DNA of 64,000 nucleotides. Source: Alphaproteobacteria bacterium (lineage in GTDB: Bacteria > Pseudomonadota > Alphaproteobacteria > UBA8366). A program made the position numbers and the translations under genes. This document shows positions 15,853 through 20,671 of this stretch, piece after piece. The stretch lies in the NCBI GenBank assembly GCA_028281325.1, contig JANQKC010000015.1, positions 20,282-84,281 on the forward strand, given 5' to 3'. The notes below the pieces were generated by a model that saw only the letters and a program-made list of their open reading frames with translations, was not told where the DNA came from and made no database searches. The stretch's first letter is position 1. Each line of letters starts with the position of its first letter.

Positions 15853-15922
15853 TTAAAAGCCCGCTCGCTGAAGTCAATGCCACCCCTTGGCGTCACACAG
15901 ACGACCGCCGGCCTCTCAGTCT

Positions 15923-16037
15923 CCTCATGCTGAGCTTGTCGAAGCATGACGCCACGCGTTCCACCCTCCCTCATCCTTCGACAAGCTCAGGATGAGGAAC
16001 ATCGAGAACTCCATCCAAGGCGCTCGCGGGAATGACG
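15923..16037. repeat. REP-like inverted pair plus a half copy of the second family
   Basis: CCTCATGCTGAGCTTGTCGAAGCATG / CATCCTTCGACAAGCTCAGGATGAGG and CGCGGGAATGACG; same families as 8161-8386. Confidence 0.8.
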
Positions 16038-16062: not shown

Positions 16063-16665
16063 CTACTTCCGGTCGATCGCAGCCTGCATGACTTCCAAGC
16101 GATCGTTGCCGAAATACATGTCGTCGCGGTCGAGGAAGAAGGTCGGCGAGCCGAAACCGCCGCGGGCGATCAGGTCGTCGGTGGTCTCGAACAGCTTCCG
16201 CTTGATCACGTCGTCGCCGATCTTTTCGAAGAAGGCGTCGGTGTCCATGCCGACCGAGGTGACGATCTCGCGCAGCACATCCTCCTGCGAGATGTCCTTG
16301 TCGTCGACCCAATATGCCTTGAAGCAGGCGCCCGAGTATGCCGACACCTTGCCCTCGTCGATGGCGACGAAGGCGCCGCGCAGCGCCTTGACGCTGTTCA
16401 CCGGGAACACGCTCGGCCGGATCATCTTGATGCCCTGGTAGCGCGCCCAATCCTCCATGTCCTTGCGGTAGTAGGCGTCCTTCGGCGGCACCGGGTTCTC
16501 GCGGCGCTGATAGACGGTGGGATTCACCTTGTTGAACACGCCGCCGACCAGGAACGGCTTCCACACCAGGTCCGCGTTGTTGCGGGCGCAGAAATCCTCG
16601 ATCCGGTCATAGGCGAGATAGGTCCAGGGGCTGGAGACGTCGTAGAAGAACTCGATGGTGGTCAT
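16063..16665 (-). CDS. 2-hydroxychromene-2-carboxylate isomerase / DsbA (kappa GST) family
   Basis: IEFFYDVSSPWTYL, GGFGSPTF, YFGNDR. Confidence 0.88.
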   Translation of the reverse strand: MTTIEFFYDVSSPWTYLAYDRIEDFCARNNADLVWKPFLVGGVFNKVNPTVYQRRENPVPPKDAYYRKDMEDWARYQGIKMIRPSVFPVNSVKALRGAFVAIDEGKVSAYSGACFKAYWVDDKDISQEDVLREIVTSVGMDTDAFFEKIGDDVIKRKLFETTDDLIARGGFGSPTFFLDRDDMYFGNDRLEVMQAAIDRK

Positions 16666-16679
16666 GGGGCGTCGGCTTT

Positions 16680-19340
16680 CTCTTAAAAACAATGATGCAA
16701 TGCAAACTTGTCTTCGGAGTTACTCTTGAACAAGGAAGATTTGCATCATCAAAACATGCAACAAACCAAAATAAGAATACTGCAGCGCTTTATACTTATA
16801 ACAAGCGATACGCGGCGAGAACCGAGATTAAGTTATATTTCTAATCCAGCATGAAATGCCGGATTTATCTCGAAGACCGTAACCTTGGTCTTCCCATGTA
16901 AGGTCTTCAAGAGCTTAATATCATAGCTCAGGTCGTAAATATAAACTGGGTCTCCATTGTCTCTAAAAATACCGAGGACTCCATACCACAATAAAAGTTC
17001 TGTCACTTGTTCCCAATACTCCTCCGTAATGTTGAAATCGATGAATAGAAGTTGAAGACCCTCTTCTGAAATTGTCCTTTCAGCATCCATGAACATATAA
17101 ATAATGTCTTCTACCATGGACCATATGTCCCGAATTTCGTAACTGATTTCTTGTATCAAATCACGGGAATGAACCTTAATTCCGTCTCGAAAATCCTCCT
17201 CTTCGATTTTGTTATGTCCACGATTAATCGCAAATCCGCGGCAATGGTTTAGACAATCAATCAACTCACGCGGTCGCATGAGCGATCGGTCAATCAAGAA
17301 TTGGCAACTCTCTTCGCCATCAACGTGGGTAGCCGCAATACTGCGCCATACCTGCATAAAATCAGTATCAGAACTTAGATCATTGACGATCAATCGGCGC
17401 CTAAGCAGTTCCCTTAAGCTATCGGCGTCTGTCCAATCCAGTAATACCTTTGTCTCTTTACCACGGTCAGGTGTTTCTCCTACTAAAAGCTCGTAAACAT
17501 CGTTCCTCAAGCAAACTATGCTCTTACAAAAGATATCTCTTGAATTAAATTCCCTCTCTATTTTTCTTGTAGATTCTAATAACGTCCTGATAATAATTAA
17601 ATCTGTTCTTTTGATTCCATGAGTCTGCCACCCTTTATCCACATTATCTATTATCAGCCACACTTGATCTTTTATTTTCAAATATTCACAAATATTTTCT
17701 CTAAGCTCTCGAATATCATGCTTATACAATAGTTCCGTGACCTGAGCTTGTGTCAAACTTGTTACCTTAGAGCCAAATCTCGACCTAAAATCATCCTGAA
17801 TTCGAGAGATTAGTTGAGACATTCGTTCTGAAAAATCACCTTCACTAACGAACTCGTCGGCATCATATAACTCAGATAGGTCTCTATAGGGTTCGTAAAT
17901 ACTGGGATCTCTCGTATGAACGACACGGTCTTTCTCAAGTAATTTATGGGCAACTTCAAGCAATAATACATATTCCCAGAATGCCGTTATTAAATGATCT
18001 AATGCACCCTCAGTAAGAAGTCCGAATATATCTTCTTTGAACTTGATTAATTTGTAACTTTCGGGCTTCAAATCGATTACTATATTTTGTCTATTGCGCC
18101 TAAGTACATTTCGCAAATGTGCGAACAACGCACTCTTACCTGAACCTTTTCGTCCAAGAACAACTCGAACTTCGCCTCTCAGCGCTCTACGAAAAGCGTC
18201 AGTCTCCACGTAGTATTCTGAAATATTTTGGAACTCATTCTCTGCAGCGGACGCACCAAGGTGCAATCGCTCTAGAAAAGTCCTGGGCTCCGCAATGAGC
18301 GCTGGTGCCTCACCTTGAAATGCGAGCGTTACTTGAGGCGCGAACTCCGCAATCGCTTCATCAATCTGTGTTGGATGTCGGCAAACTGTTACGATATCGC
18401 GGTAGTCGATCGGTACAGGCTCGTCCCCAAACTGGATAAAGCAGAGATGTTTTCCCATTCCCGCTGCTAATCCAGCGACAAACGCAGCCCGGAGATTGTG
18501 ATACTCATGATCCACAATCTCGCTTGGCAGCAATGAAACAATTACCCCATGAGACTGAGCTACGTTCGAAACAGCATTCAATGCAGACATTCGTTGCGAT
18601 TCATTTGGGTCAAAACTTCGAAAAAAGAGTTTCGCCTTCTTGACGCGAGAAACAATTCGAACAAGCGGGTCCGTTTTAAACTTACCATCAAGTAAGTATA
18701 CTGGTGCTTTTTCATTTATTCTTTCACTGGAGAAGTCAATTGATCCTAAATCTGATACATTCCTAATAACGCCTACTAAATCTGATGAATTTTCATAATT
18801 TTTCCAACCAATTGTATCAAATATCCCAAGTTCGCTCAGTTTCTTATTGTCGTCTTCGATCCCAGCAAATCTGACTAATACAATTTTCTTTCTGCTTCCA
18901 ATTGCAAAGCCCAGTTCATACACAACATTAAAATTCAGGACACTAACATCCGCGATAAAGCAATCGCTGTCCGTAATGCCTCCAAGAACCTCCGTTGCGA
19001 TAAACCTCCCTGCTACATCAAGCTCTCTCCAAGTTTTAAAAGACGCTATCAGAGCCAACGTTCGAAGTTGCTTAGCCGCCGCCTCAATAGTTTGCCCAAC
19101 CATTGGAGGATTGGCAGGATATGCAATAAAACCGGAAACTGCTGCCATATCGATTTAACGTCCCACACGTTTTTCCGACTAGATGCCTGTTGAGTGGTCC
19201 GAAGAATGAGATTAGCTCAAATCTGTCGCACACAATCAATGCTGTTAACACCTGGATATTAAGAGAATTAGAATACAATCTTATAGAGAATTTTTATCCA
19301 TAAAATACCGAAATCTTTAAACCTGATTTGTAGCGTATTT
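16680..19340. other. AT-rich, probably horizontally acquired single-gene islet
   Basis: Abrupt compositional shift (about low-40s % GC by eye versus mid-60s); no integrase or transposase seen; boundaries approximate. Confidence 0.75.
16833..19148 (-). CDS. Sll1717-family (STAND-like) P-loop ATPase with two N-terminal nucleoside deoxyribosyltransferase/TIR-like domains; AT-rich
   Basis: IADVSVLNFNVVYELGFAIG; degenerate second copy HNLRAAFVAGLAAGMGK; GASAAENE; Walker A GRKGSGKS; Walker B LIIDNVD; RPRELI; C-terminal INPAF. Confidence 0.8.
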   Translation of the reverse strand: MAAVSGFIAYPANPPMVGQTIEAAAKQLRTLALIASFKTWRELDVAGRFIATEVLGGITDSDCFIADVSVLNFNVVYELGFAIGSRKKIVLVRFAGIEDDNKKLSELGIFDTIGWKNYENSSDLVGVIRNVSDLGSIDFSSERINEKAPVYLLDGKFKTDPLVRIVSRVKKAKLFFRSFDPNESQRMSALNAVSNVAQSHGVIVSLLPSEIVDHEYHNLRAAFVAGLAAGMGKHLCFIQFGDEPVPIDYRDIVTVCRHPTQIDEAIAEFAPQVTLAFQGEAPALIAEPRTFLERLHLGASAAENEFQNISEYYVETDAFRRALRGEVRVVLGRKGSGKSALFAHLRNVLRRNRQNIVIDLKPESYKLIKFKEDIFGLLTEGALDHLITAFWEYVLLLEVAHKLLEKDRVVHTRDPSIYEPYRDLSELYDADEFVSEGDFSERMSQLISRIQDDFRSRFGSKVTSLTQAQVTELLYKHDIRELRENICEYLKIKDQVWLIIDNVDKGWQTHGIKRTDLIIIRTLLESTRKIEREFNSRDIFCKSIVCLRNDVYELLVGETPDRGKETKVLLDWTDADSLRELLRRRLIVNDLSSDTDFMQVWRSIAATHVDGEESCQFLIDRSLMRPRELIDCLNHCRGFAINRGHNKIEEEDFRDGIKVHSRDLIQEISYEIRDIWSMVEDIIYMFMDAERTISEEGLQLLFIDFNITEEYWEQVTELLLWYGVLGIFRDNGDPVYIYDLSYDIKLLKTLHGKTKVTVFEINPAFHAGLEI

Positions 19341-19486: not shown

Positions 19487-20671
19487 ATGGGGGCGCTCGA
19501 CAGCATTCGCGTGCTCGATGTCAGCCAGGTGCTGGCGGGGCCGTTCTGCGGGCAGCTCATGGCGGATAACGGGGCCGAGGTGATCCGGGTGGAATCGCTG
19601 GACGGCGATCTGTGCCGCCGCTTCCCGCCGGACCGGGGCGGCCAGAGCACAACCTTCCTCGCCGTCAACCGGGGCAAGCGCGGCCTCGCGTTGAACCTGA
19701 AGACCGAGGAAGGCCGCGGCGTGCTGCACCGGCTGGCCGAGCACGCGGATATCATGATCCAGAGCTTCCTGCCGGACCGCGCGAAACAACTCGGCCTCGA
19801 CTACGACACGATCCACGGCCTCAACCGCGACCTCATCCACGTCACCATTTCCGGCTATGGCGCGACCGGGCCGCTGAAGGACAAGGCGGGGCTCGACATG
19901 ATGGTGTCGGCCTATGCCGGCATCATGGGCCTGACCGGAGAGCCCGACAGGTCGCCCATGCGGCCCGGCACCCCGGCGACCGACATGAGCACCGGCATGA
20001 TCGCCTACGGGGCGGCGATGACCGCGCTGGTCGCACGCGGCAACGGCCAGGGCGGACAGGCAGTGAACGTTTCGCTGATGGAAACCGCGCTCAACCTGTT
20101 GGCGTTCAACGCGACCCACTGGCTGGTCGAGGGAGAGGTGCCGGTGCGCGAAGGATCGGGTTTCGCCGAACTCGCGCCTTACGGTGCGTTCGACGCGGCG
20201 GACGGGCCGATCATCGTCGGCGCGCCCAACGAAGCCGGCTGGCAGCGCCTCTGCGCCGCGTTGGGCCGCGAGGATCTGCGCGACGATCCGCGCTTCGCCG
20301 CCAACGCCGACCGCATCGCCAACCGGCCCGCGCTCAACGCGGAAATCCAGACGGTCCTGAAATCCGCCACCGTCGCGGAGTGGATCGAACGCTTCGACGC
20401 CACCGGCGCGGTCGCCGCGCCGGTCCATTCGATGGATCAGGTGTTCGCCCAGGAACAGGTCAAGGCGACCGGCATGATCGTTCCCACCCAGGACCGCGAC
20501 GGCGGCACGGTCGACCTGGTCGGCCCGCCCTTCAAGCTGAGCGAAACGCCGCCGGAACCGGGCGACGCGCCGCCCCGCCTGGGGGAACACACCGAAGCGG
20601 TGCTGCGAGACGACCTGGGACTGACAGACACGGACATCGCCGCGCTGCGCCAGGCCGGAGCGATTTCCTAA
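19487..20671 (+). CDS. CaiB/BaiF class III CoA-transferase
   Basis: LAGPFCGQLMADNGAEVIRVE, NRGKR, PPRLGEHT. Confidence 0.92.
   Translation: MGALDSIRVLDVSQVLAGPFCGQLMADNGAEVIRVESLDGDLCRRFPPDRGGQSTTFLAVNRGKRGLALNLKTEEGRGVLHRLAEHADIMIQSFLPDRAKQLGLDYDTIHGLNRDLIHVTISGYGATGPLKDKAGLDMMVSAYAGIMGLTGEPDRSPMRPGTPATDMSTGMIAYGAAMTALVARGNGQGGQAVNVSLMETALNLLAFNATHWLVEGEVPVREGSGFAELAPYGAFDAADGPIIVGAPNEAGWQRLCAALGREDLRDDPRFAANADRIANRPALNAEIQTVLKSATVAEWIERFDATGAVAAPVHSMDQVFAQEQVKATGMIVPTQDRDGGTVDLVGPPFKLSETPPEPGDAPPRLGEHTEAVLRDDLGLTDTDIAALRQAGAIS

Follow-up and report, generated by a model that had tools for sequence, protein, structure and literature searches.

The stretch of 64,000 nucleotides analysed here (in the following, the window) belongs to contig JANQKC010000015.1 of the alphaproteobacterial assembly GCA_028281325.1. 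At 16833..19148 on the minus strand (stop codon included) it contains an open reading frame (ORF) with an ATG start that encodes a 771-aa protein and stands alone in a low-GC island. The protein is composed of three parts, namely a domain with a predicted TIR/nucleoside 2-deoxyribosyltransferase (NDT) fold, a second domain of this kind that lacks the catalytic-type glutamate, and a C-terminal P-loop ATPase of the Sll1717 family with 475 residues. We propose that the island carries a self-contained and horizontally spread one-gene conflict system, which would most likely be directed against phages. For the more specific reading, that of a one-gene abortive-infection system in which assembly of the ATPase switches on an N-glycosidase, we see the chances as about even. 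The antiviral role is suggested by circumstantial evidence, i.e. by the mobile and defence neighbourhoods of the relatives, by the remote relative DS-41 and by the caspase and PNP heads that are grafted onto some family members. As a candidate, the gene is well defined, widespread and easily testable.

The island (16683..19332, approximately 2650 bp) stands where other genomes of the same genus have about 67 bp of intergenic DNA. Its GC content is about 0.41 compared to about 0.65 in the surroundings; in windows of 500 nt it ranges from 0.356 to 0.488 between 16500 and 19499, with values of 0.60-0.71 on both sides. A DNA search with the segment 14300-21200 revealed a spacing of 66-67 bp between the two flanks in the same-genus genomes G002, G003 and G004 and of approximately 2655 bp here, and in the junction alignment the homology to the same-genus genomes stops near 16682 and restarts near 19333. 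No target-site duplication and no flanking direct repeats were seen at the island ends in the junction alignment and the repeat scan, and no tRNA was found within the window. The gene is present in one copy in its own genome. Since the site is empty in three of the four same-genus genomes and the gene occurs in none of 40 relatives, including these four (1/41 if its own genome is counted), the island gene is a foreign acquisition. A sequence-only reading of this DNA had described an AT-rich ORF of 771 aa between two divergent host-like genes, which is confirmed by the ORF itself, the GC profile and the annotation of the flanks. It had also called the ORF a solitary foreign gene, and this agrees with the empty site, with the absence from the relatives and with the finding that no neighbour is shared by more than 8 of 80 loci of homologs.

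Both N-terminal domains are likely to have the TIR/NDT fold. An AlphaFold-type model of residues 1-296 (predicted local distance difference test, pLDDT, 93; predicted template modelling score, pTM, 0.91) consists of two alpha/beta domains (residues 1-135 and 146-280), which correspond to domain 1 (residues 1-135; 18744..19148, minus strand) and domain 2 (residues 146-285; 18294..18713, minus strand). In VIA structure searches, for which a background of Z 7-8 is stated and in which receiver and flavodoxin folds score 8-9, TIR and NDT-superfamily structures head the match list for both domains. Domain 1 matched TIR-1 (Z 9.9), the 2'-deoxyribosyltransferase 7o62 (Z 9.6), the SARM1 TIR domain (Z 9.5) and PDT 1s2d (Z 8.9), and domain 2 matched the RPS4 TIR domain (Z 10.8), TIR-STING (Z 10.5), MilB (Z 10.4) and AbTir (Z 9.0). 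A Foldseek search of the two-domain model against the PDB gave just generic matches to proteins with two Rossmann domains (EngA, PleD, glycosyltransferases; TMq ≤0.30, root-mean-square deviation 15-18 Å), which were discarded.

Domain 1 contains the motif D67..N72.N74-V75.Y77-E78-L-G80.A82.G84. In the NDT family, the glutamate of the (Y)E(L/I)G helix is the nucleophile. The family profile matches Rcl/DNPH1 chains with an E-value of 9.2e-5, and in this alignment the glutamate of YE(L/I)G (E78) is placed on their catalytic glutamate, which suggests Glu78 (codon 18915..18917, minus strand) as the putative catalytic residue. Conservation was counted in 178 full-length family members with the window protein as the reference row. 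Position 78 is a glutamate in 175 of them, and G47, D67 and N74 as well as K338, D501, D504, R548, R625 and R627 of the ATPase are invariant in all 178. This conservation pattern indicates that the catalytic and the ATPase residues are under strong constraint. With regard to the possible substrate, the sequence leans towards DNPH1/NDT, and the modelled fold equally towards TIR.

Domain 2 contains the motifs RAAFVAGLAAGMGK at residues 220-233 and VPIDY at residues 245-249. All motifs quoted in the sequence-only reading (D..N.NV.YELG.A.G, VPIDY and Walker A/B) are indeed present in the translation. The same reading had assumed tandem NDT/TIR-like domains with a catalytic-type glutamate in the first one only, and this is upheld by the VIA folds of the AlphaFold-type model, by hhalign and by the conservation. 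The duplication of the head is supported mainly by the modelled fold and is faint in sequence: hhalign aligns domain 1 with domain 2 over 25 columns only (P 0.0021, probability 13.5%), which comprise the helix-3 motifs N.N..YE.G.A.G..K of domain 1 and N.R..F..G.A.G..K of domain 2 at matching relative positions. Position 224, the counterpart of E78 in domain 2, is L, I or V in 169 of the 178 members and a glutamate in none. On the other hand, E183, N218 and G226 are invariant in all 178, and R186 (175/178), D248 (173/178), R250 (172/178) and R220 (161/178, with Gln in 14 more) are highly conserved. Judging by these counts, domain 2 is catalytically "dead" at the Glu position, yet it is no decaying copy, since residues of its own (E183, N218, G226 and others) are kept across the family. 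The ligand face of the TIR/NDT fold lies just past its strands, and the conserved polar and charged residues of domain 2 are found just past the strands of the model. The earlier suggestion that domain 2 might sense a nucleotide or autoinhibit would be compatible with its invariant polar residues. In the Atlas, the look-alikes of domain 2 are TIR, CAP12-PCTIR and NDT clusters (scores of 0.76-0.83), which we regard as a lead only.

The C-terminal part (residues 297-771; 16836..18260, minus strand) matches the NCBIfam model NF047389 ("P-loop ATPase, Sll1717 family") with 300.3 bits (E 2.7e-89; cut-off 75 bits), the profile being covered from 1 to 454 of 454 positions on residues 297-769. Walker A (GRKGSGKS, residues 332-339; 18132..18155, minus strand) contains K338, and Walker B (WLIIDNVD, residues 497-504; 17637..17660, minus strand) contains D501 and D504. 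An AlphaFold2 model of residues 297-771, which was based on an alignment with 67 rows (pLDDT 90.7, pTM 0.89), shows a P-loop domain in which strand 2 and the Walker B strand are separated by a helical insert of approximately 130 residues; a helical domain and a small winged-helix-like end complete the model. The unit of nucleotide-binding domain (NBD), helical domain and winged-helix domain takes up the entire 475-residue model. No C-terminal repeat and no large sensor is present, as the protein ends at the winged-helix-like region and no repeat family was detected in Pfam. The original description as an Sll1717-type ATPase with intact Walker A/B motifs and without a repeat sensor thus holds in the light of the profile match, the model and the motifs.

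The additional label as a member of the signal transduction ATPases with numerous domains (STAND) can be maintained in part. In STAND proteins, the NTPase domain precedes a helical and then a winged-helix domain (Leipe et al. 2004). The VIA search with the ATPase model, which was run without Foldseek pre-filtering, gave the archaeal AAA+ protein 2fna as the best match (Z 14.0, 320 residues aligned, spanning 1-474), further 2qen (Z 13.7), Orc1/Cdc6 (Z 13.2), TnsC (Z 12.6), MuB (Z 11.3) and BrxC (Z 9.7), and on the side of the NLR proteins two plant NLR resistosomes (Z 12.6), the SIR2-STAND protein EfAvs5 (Z 10.6) and ZAR1 (Z 9.8). Foldseek agrees with Cdc6, 2fna, 2qen, TnsC, BrxC and CED-4 (E 9e-4 for the latter). 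Since the model matches ATPase_2, NLR, EfAvs5 and Orc/Cdc6 structures, "STAND-like" seems to be a fair description of its fold, but the fold is unable to separate STAND from AAA+ proteins of the Orc/Cdc6 type: the alignment to plant NLRs, EfAvs5 and CED-4 extends over residues 1-475 of the model, and that to ATPase_2 and Orc1/Cdc6 is equally good or better. The STAND models of Pfam all remain under their gathering scores (NACHT 16.5 of 26.7 bits, AAA_16 23.3 of 32.6 bits, ATPase_2 22.9 of 33.2 bits). The SSO-type archaeal ATPases are presumably members of MNS, a clade within STAND. In the accessible part of a STAND survey from 2026 (PMC13581612), MNS is a clade that had been defined earlier.

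The complete architecture is shared by many proteins. A search with the full-length protein resulted in 1581 proteins at E ≤0.001 among 7999 scored, and the best 119 relatives listed have a length of 708-792 aa and are 48-57% identical to the window protein. As judged by these sequences, the observation is well beyond chance, because full-length relatives (approximately 775 aa, 48-57% identity) fill the top 120 matches. With the N-terminal module as the query, 1146 representatives (clustered at 50%) were obtained, of which 729 have an E-value of ≤1e-10 and 189 of ≤1e-30. Among the best 150 of them, 57 possess the full architecture, two possess it together with an N-terminal extension, and 77 end inside the model at scattered points and are fragment-like. 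Other C-terminal partners of the module were considered for 14 of the 150 that have non-matching tails and were rejected, as these tails look like frameshifted, low-complexity read-through. No tandem module with any partner other than the Sll1717 ATPase was found among the 150 listed representatives.

In a collection of species-representative genomes, at least 396 loci were confirmed as relatives out of 599 candidate stretches examined, and for the whole collection we estimate approximately 1600 stretches with a pattern match. The genome scan detected these relatives with the family alignment as the query, but none with the single protein. The distribution is broad and patchy: the 80 loci that were kept belong to Acidobacteriota, Verrucomicrobiota, Cyanobacteria, Bacteroidota, Planctomycetota, Chloroflexota, Nitrospirota, Gemmatimonadota, one genome of the candidate phyla radiation and many Proteobacteria. 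The full-length form is also present on 15 plasmid records. In the phage collection, the family is not phage-borne, since just one weak partial match (56 bits) was found in 50,697 records. A few rare relatives carry an additional head in front of module and ATPase, which is a caspase of the EACC1 type in P0195 and P0271 (87% identity) and a PNP/MTA-nucleosidase-like domain in P0211 and P0277 (58% identity). Elsewhere, mostly in cyanobacteria, such caspase and PNP heads are joined to NB-ARC, NACHT, AAA_16, TPR, WD40, FGE-sulfatase and TIR/SEFIR bodies. This pattern of head swapping is typical of modular conflict proteins.

The Sll1717 family itself was detected over the cut-off in 25 of 401 sampled genomes of the phylum and in none of 14 control genomes. 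Of 18 such ORFs that were scanned, 12 are stand-alone proteins (470-559 aa), four are fused to a ParA-like ATPase with a KGGVGR motif, one has a C-terminal extension and one the tandem module. The ParA fusions are proteins of approximately 880 aa (L106, L107, L109, L110) with the ParA/MinD-like ATPase (NF047398) ahead of the Sll1717-family ATPase, i.e. with two unlike P-loop domains per chain, and they were found in four genomes and two related families. On the E. coli plasmid p1303_109, a 698-aa "hypothetical protein" (L123:3968-6064) is an Sll1717-family ATPase (292 bits) that is extended C-terminally by about 220 aa. Its gene is the passenger of a Tn3-like ISEc63 element, whose recombinase and transposase lie beside it. 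Approximately 120 further enterobacterial plasmid records contain a protein of this 698-aa type, and a 688-aa protein (L092) has the same layout.

Among 73 loci of relatives whose flanks exceed 4 kb, there are 62 in which the gene lies more than 5 GC points under its surroundings (median -9.5 points). There is no recurrent partner gene: in an all-against-all clustering of 1221 ORFs, the gene itself was recovered in 79 of the 80 loci, and the best neighbour cluster in 8 of 80, where its median distance from the gene is 3.4 kb. A Pfam scan covered the two ORFs next to the gene on either side in the first 37 loci that have two ORFs per side (148 ORFs). Mobile-element marks were present in 14 of them (integrase, transposase, resolvase, Rep3/KfrA, MobA, ArdC, prophage genes) and defence or toxin marks in nine (type IIG restriction-modification (RM), ABC-3C parts, ThsB-TIR, SLATT, HEPN-RES, PIN, DUF3368, Fic, helicase), so that 19 of 37 loci show one or the other. 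In three of the 15 plasmids, which we inspected, insertion sequence elements, a RES-Xre pair, HEPN/Toprim-associated, PLD-like and DUF4238 genes and TnpB are located nearby.

A scan with PADLOC covered 58 loci and 232 ORFs, again two per side. Matches at E ≤1e-10 were obtained for 25 ORFs in 19 loci and matches of at least 100 bits for 13 ORFs in ten loci, or in eight loci if an amino-acid transporter and a subtilase are left out. The retained matches comprise type IIG RM (twice), PDC-M68B, PDC-S70, PDC-S55, SoFic, a MkoA-like helicase, DrmC with DUF4238 and a complete retron III-A pair. Among 56 ORFs of the window, which served as control, there were three matches to generic families with at most 61 bits and none of 100 bits or more. 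This fits an accessory, island-type gene that is often near defence genes; a formal test of enrichment is not part of these counts. With regard to the co-localisation of homologs with defence islands, which the sequence-only reading had brought up, strong defence genes are nearby in 8-10 of 58 loci; in the window, the island of the gene lies in metabolic surroundings and not in a defence island. At one locus (L032:13199-14691), the homolog adjoins a radical-SAM protein with a modest match to prokaryotic viperins (75 bits), whose gene is paired with a deoxynucleoside-kinase-like gene. The viperin match is ambiguous, as the same model gives 61 bits for a radical-SAM protein of housekeeping type that is encoded in the window.

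In the mechanism that we consider, the 771-aa protein would be an inactive monomer in the resting state. Upon an infection cue, the Sll1717-family ATPase would bind ATP and form an oligomer or filament, by which the N-terminal TIR/NDT-fold modules would be gathered. Glu78 of domain 1 might then cut the N-glycosidic bond in NAD+ or in a (deoxy)nucleotide, whereas domain 2, as a copy without catalytic activity, would complete, regulate or gate the site of domain 1. The loss of NAD+ or nucleotides would starve the infected cell and the phage, growth would stop and the phage would be aborted.

Several results speak against this mechanism or weaken its basis. The Z-scores of 9-11 for the two small domains are just modestly above the VIA background, the NDT model PF05014 of Pfam reaches 20.6 bits and is thus under its gathering score of 28.8, and no TIR model of Pfam matches the protein at E ≤1. 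In 3 of 25 scanned relatives, PF05014 scores 28.8-29.6 bits, and in a further one (L091) 27.9 bits. Moreover, the position that is aligned to the residue in which two deposited Rcl sequences differ is hydrophobic here. We take this residue to be the sugar-binding Asp69 and the two entries to be D69A and D69N mutants; with a hydrophobic residue in place of this Asp, an orthodox hydrolase of deoxynucleoside monophosphates is not expected. No separate sensor domain is visible in the 771-aa protein. Its C-terminal part shows good conservation at about 50% identity, in contrast to many sensors, which evolve fast. The PADLOC models match nothing beyond the Walker A region, and the equivalog model of DS-41 (NF053860, DS41_1_antiphage) gives 36.2 bits against a cut-off of 370 on residues 301-669. 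With respect to the neighbourhoods, a strong defence gene is located within two ORFs in just 8-10 of 58 loci, the neighbouring ORFs were defined as the longest frame, by which shadow ORFs are picked in high-GC DNA, and the control consists of a single window. Finally, the island itself is surrounded by metabolic genes and there is no defence island here.

The main rival assigns the role of a sensor to the head, especially to domain 2. According to this explanation, the tandem module would above all sense nucleotides and would not be the killer: domain 2, and perhaps domain 1 too, would bind a small nucleotide that arises in infection or stress, and this would license the ATPase as the effector, for instance by DNA binding via the winged helix as in Orc/Cdc6, TnsC and MuB. 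We consider this unlikely. C-terminal repeats with a possible sensing role are absent, invariant charged residues of domain 2 (E183, R186, R220, D248, R250) are located just past the strands of the model, and DNA-binding AAA+ proteins are among the closest folds of the ATPase (Orc1/Cdc6 with Z 13.2, TnsC with Z 12.6, MuB with Z 11.3). In addition, 12 of the 18 scanned ATPases of the family stand alone without a fused effector, and the rare relatives in which a caspase or PNP domain precedes the module as a distinct death effector indicate that the two can coexist. However, these extra heads occur in just four protein clusters, the neighbour clustering of 80 loci revealed no linkage to a cyclase or to any other gene for signal synthesis, and the glutamate in position 78 of 175 out of 178 members, aligned with a catalytic glutamate, argues for chemistry beyond binding. 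Sensing and catalysis might also be combined in the head, with the Glu-less domain 2 as a pseudo-enzyme that acts as the receptor of a nucleotide made by the phage or specific to infection, the binding of which would release both the assembly of the ATPase and the Glu78 site. A duplicated enzyme fold would in this case recognise a small molecule as a pattern, and no synthase for a second messenger would be involved. This variant strikes us as rather improbable. Candidate ligands of such a receptor would be hydroxymethylated pyrimidine nucleotides, which are recognised by DNPH1, MilB and similar enzymes of the NDT family.

It is also conceivable that the gene does not serve immunity at all. It might be a selfish module for addiction or competition between mobile elements, which would suit the full-length copies on 15 plasmid records and the replication, mobilisation and transposition genes that are often adjacent, or a regulated N-glycosidase for nucleotide salvage or detoxification, as NDT and DNPH1 relatives are metabolic enzymes and the neighbours in the window are metabolic as well. 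However, an antitoxin-like partner is not recurrent. A switch ATPase of 475 residues is unexpected for a salvage enzyme, the gene is not inherited vertically in the host lineage, and the remote relative DS-41 protects against phages. We assign a low probability to this explanation, below that of a head acting mainly as sensor. That the copy in the window is a decaying remnant without current function is hardly credible: it is an isolated insertion with a strongly deviant GC content, but the frame is intact over 771 codons and every family-invariant residue is present, the latter because the window protein is the reference row for the invariant columns.

The reading as an abortive-infection system places the protein next to known systems that combine an effector with an oligomerising ATPase. 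With Avs and bacterial NLR-like proteins (EfAvs5 as a SIR2-STAND protein, TIR-NLRs) it shares, according to the models, the arrangement in one chain, in which an N-terminal effector of the nucleotide-degrading type is followed by an ATPase with NBD, helical and winged-helix domains, and the patchy, mobile distribution. It differs from them in that a C-terminal sensor of at least 400 aa, such as TPR or WD40 repeats, is absent, in that its ATPase is of the Sll1717 family and closest to the archaeal ATPase_2 (Z 14.0), and in that its effector is a tandem of TIR/NDT-fold domains with one Glu-less copy; furthermore, no NLR or Avs model of PADLOC matches it. The tandem head of a putatively active and an inactive TIR/NDT domain is unusual. 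The similarity to the NDT enzymes (DNPH1/Rcl, nucleoside 2-deoxyribosyltransferases, MilB) comprises the modelled fold (Z 8.5-10.4), the profile match and the aligned glutamate, but the module described here is duplicated, fused to an ATPase, foreign and accessory rather than metabolic, and under the Pfam threshold. An NDT-type effector is also part of Retron-Eco1.

DUF4062 ("Swarozyc"/TEP1) is, in the accessible part of the corresponding study, a TIR/NDT-like NADase in phage defence that is located N-terminal to NACHT ATPases in the eukaryotic proteins NWD1, NWD2, TEP1 and NPHP3, and Swarozyc is activated by the phage portal (10.64898/2026.05.01.722283). The common feature would be a TIR/NDT-fold domain with a catalytic-type glutamate, which in Swarozyc is the NAD+-depleting executioner. 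However, Pfam does not place the 771-aa protein in DUF4062, as there is no match to this family at E ≤1. DS-41 has been described, in the accessible part of the DefensePredictor study (PMC13092281), as a single gene of approximately 500 aa with the working name AAA2 that protected E. coli from phages. It is likewise a single-gene system and a remote homolog of the ATPase part, but judged from its length it has no room for the N-terminal module of 296 residues. By its profile score, DS-41 is a distant sister of the ATPase and another system.

The sequence-only reading could not match the architecture to a named system, and our searches came to the same result. No full-length model of PADLOC-DB v2.0.0 matches the protein, the only hits being PDC-M28C (24.3 bits, residues 300-352) and mad8 (15.1 bits), and none of the defence models of NCBIfam claims it above the cut-off. 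In the literature searched, we found neither a mention of "Sll1717" nor a description of the architecture of tandem TIR/NDT domains with an Sll1717 ATPase. The main text of PMC13581612, as far as accessible, contains neither "NDT" nor "nucleosid", and the family could be one of the 589 unnamed clades of that survey.

If the gene is a defence system, bacterial immunity would comprise one more widespread module that consists of a single gene, and the logic of effector and oligomerising ATPase would extend to the Sll1717 family, for which DS-41 is the only, albeit remote, experimentally linked relative that we found. The tandem of an active and a dead TIR/NDT domain would be a tractable case for regulation or sensing by pseudo-enzymes in immune N-glycosidases. 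Since there is no repeat sensor, one has to ask what the protein recognises and which part of it does so. Its size (771 aa) permits direct studies by genetics, biochemistry and cryo-electron microscopy.

The remaining features concern the island and its flanks. Upstream of the gene, the island contains an AT-rich region of 184 bp (19149..19332, minus strand), which is presumed to be the promoter region. Consensus scans for promoters and terminators gave sites no more frequently than in shuffled sequence, and no promoter was assigned. An imperfect inverted repeat of 20 nt at 16692..16749, inside the island and 3' of the stop codon, was missed by the terminator scan; it may be a terminator stem. 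The flanking genes, a DSBA-like gene (16066-16692, minus strand) and a gene for a family III CoA-transferase (19487-20668, plus strand), are divergent to each other and ordinary metabolic genes. The same applies to the genes farther out (TauD, SnoaL, alpha/beta-hydrolase, a second CoA-transferase, Fpg/Nei glycosylase), which are all of ordinary metabolic or repair type.

In the fourth same-genus genome (G001), the same intergenic site is occupied by a different low-GC insert (L005:2830-3541, approximately 712 bp, GC 0.48-0.52). It encodes a 155-aa ORF (L005:2923-3390, minus strand), whose nearest Atlas clusters are all DUF6869 (30 of 30 matches, scores of 0.96-0.97). Because of this other insert, the site is variable within the genus, and with G002, G003 and G004 being empty it looks like a small cargo hotspot. 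Outside the island, between the SnoaL-like and the DSBA-like gene, the window contains an inverted repeat of 28 nt (15918-16001; arms 15922-15949 and 15971-15998, 93% complementary). Short pieces of it (25-33 nt, up to 100% identity) match many dispersed spots in G002 and G003, and it looks like a dispersed palindrome similar to repetitive extragenic palindromic (REP) sequences or miniature inverted-repeat transposable elements (MITEs).

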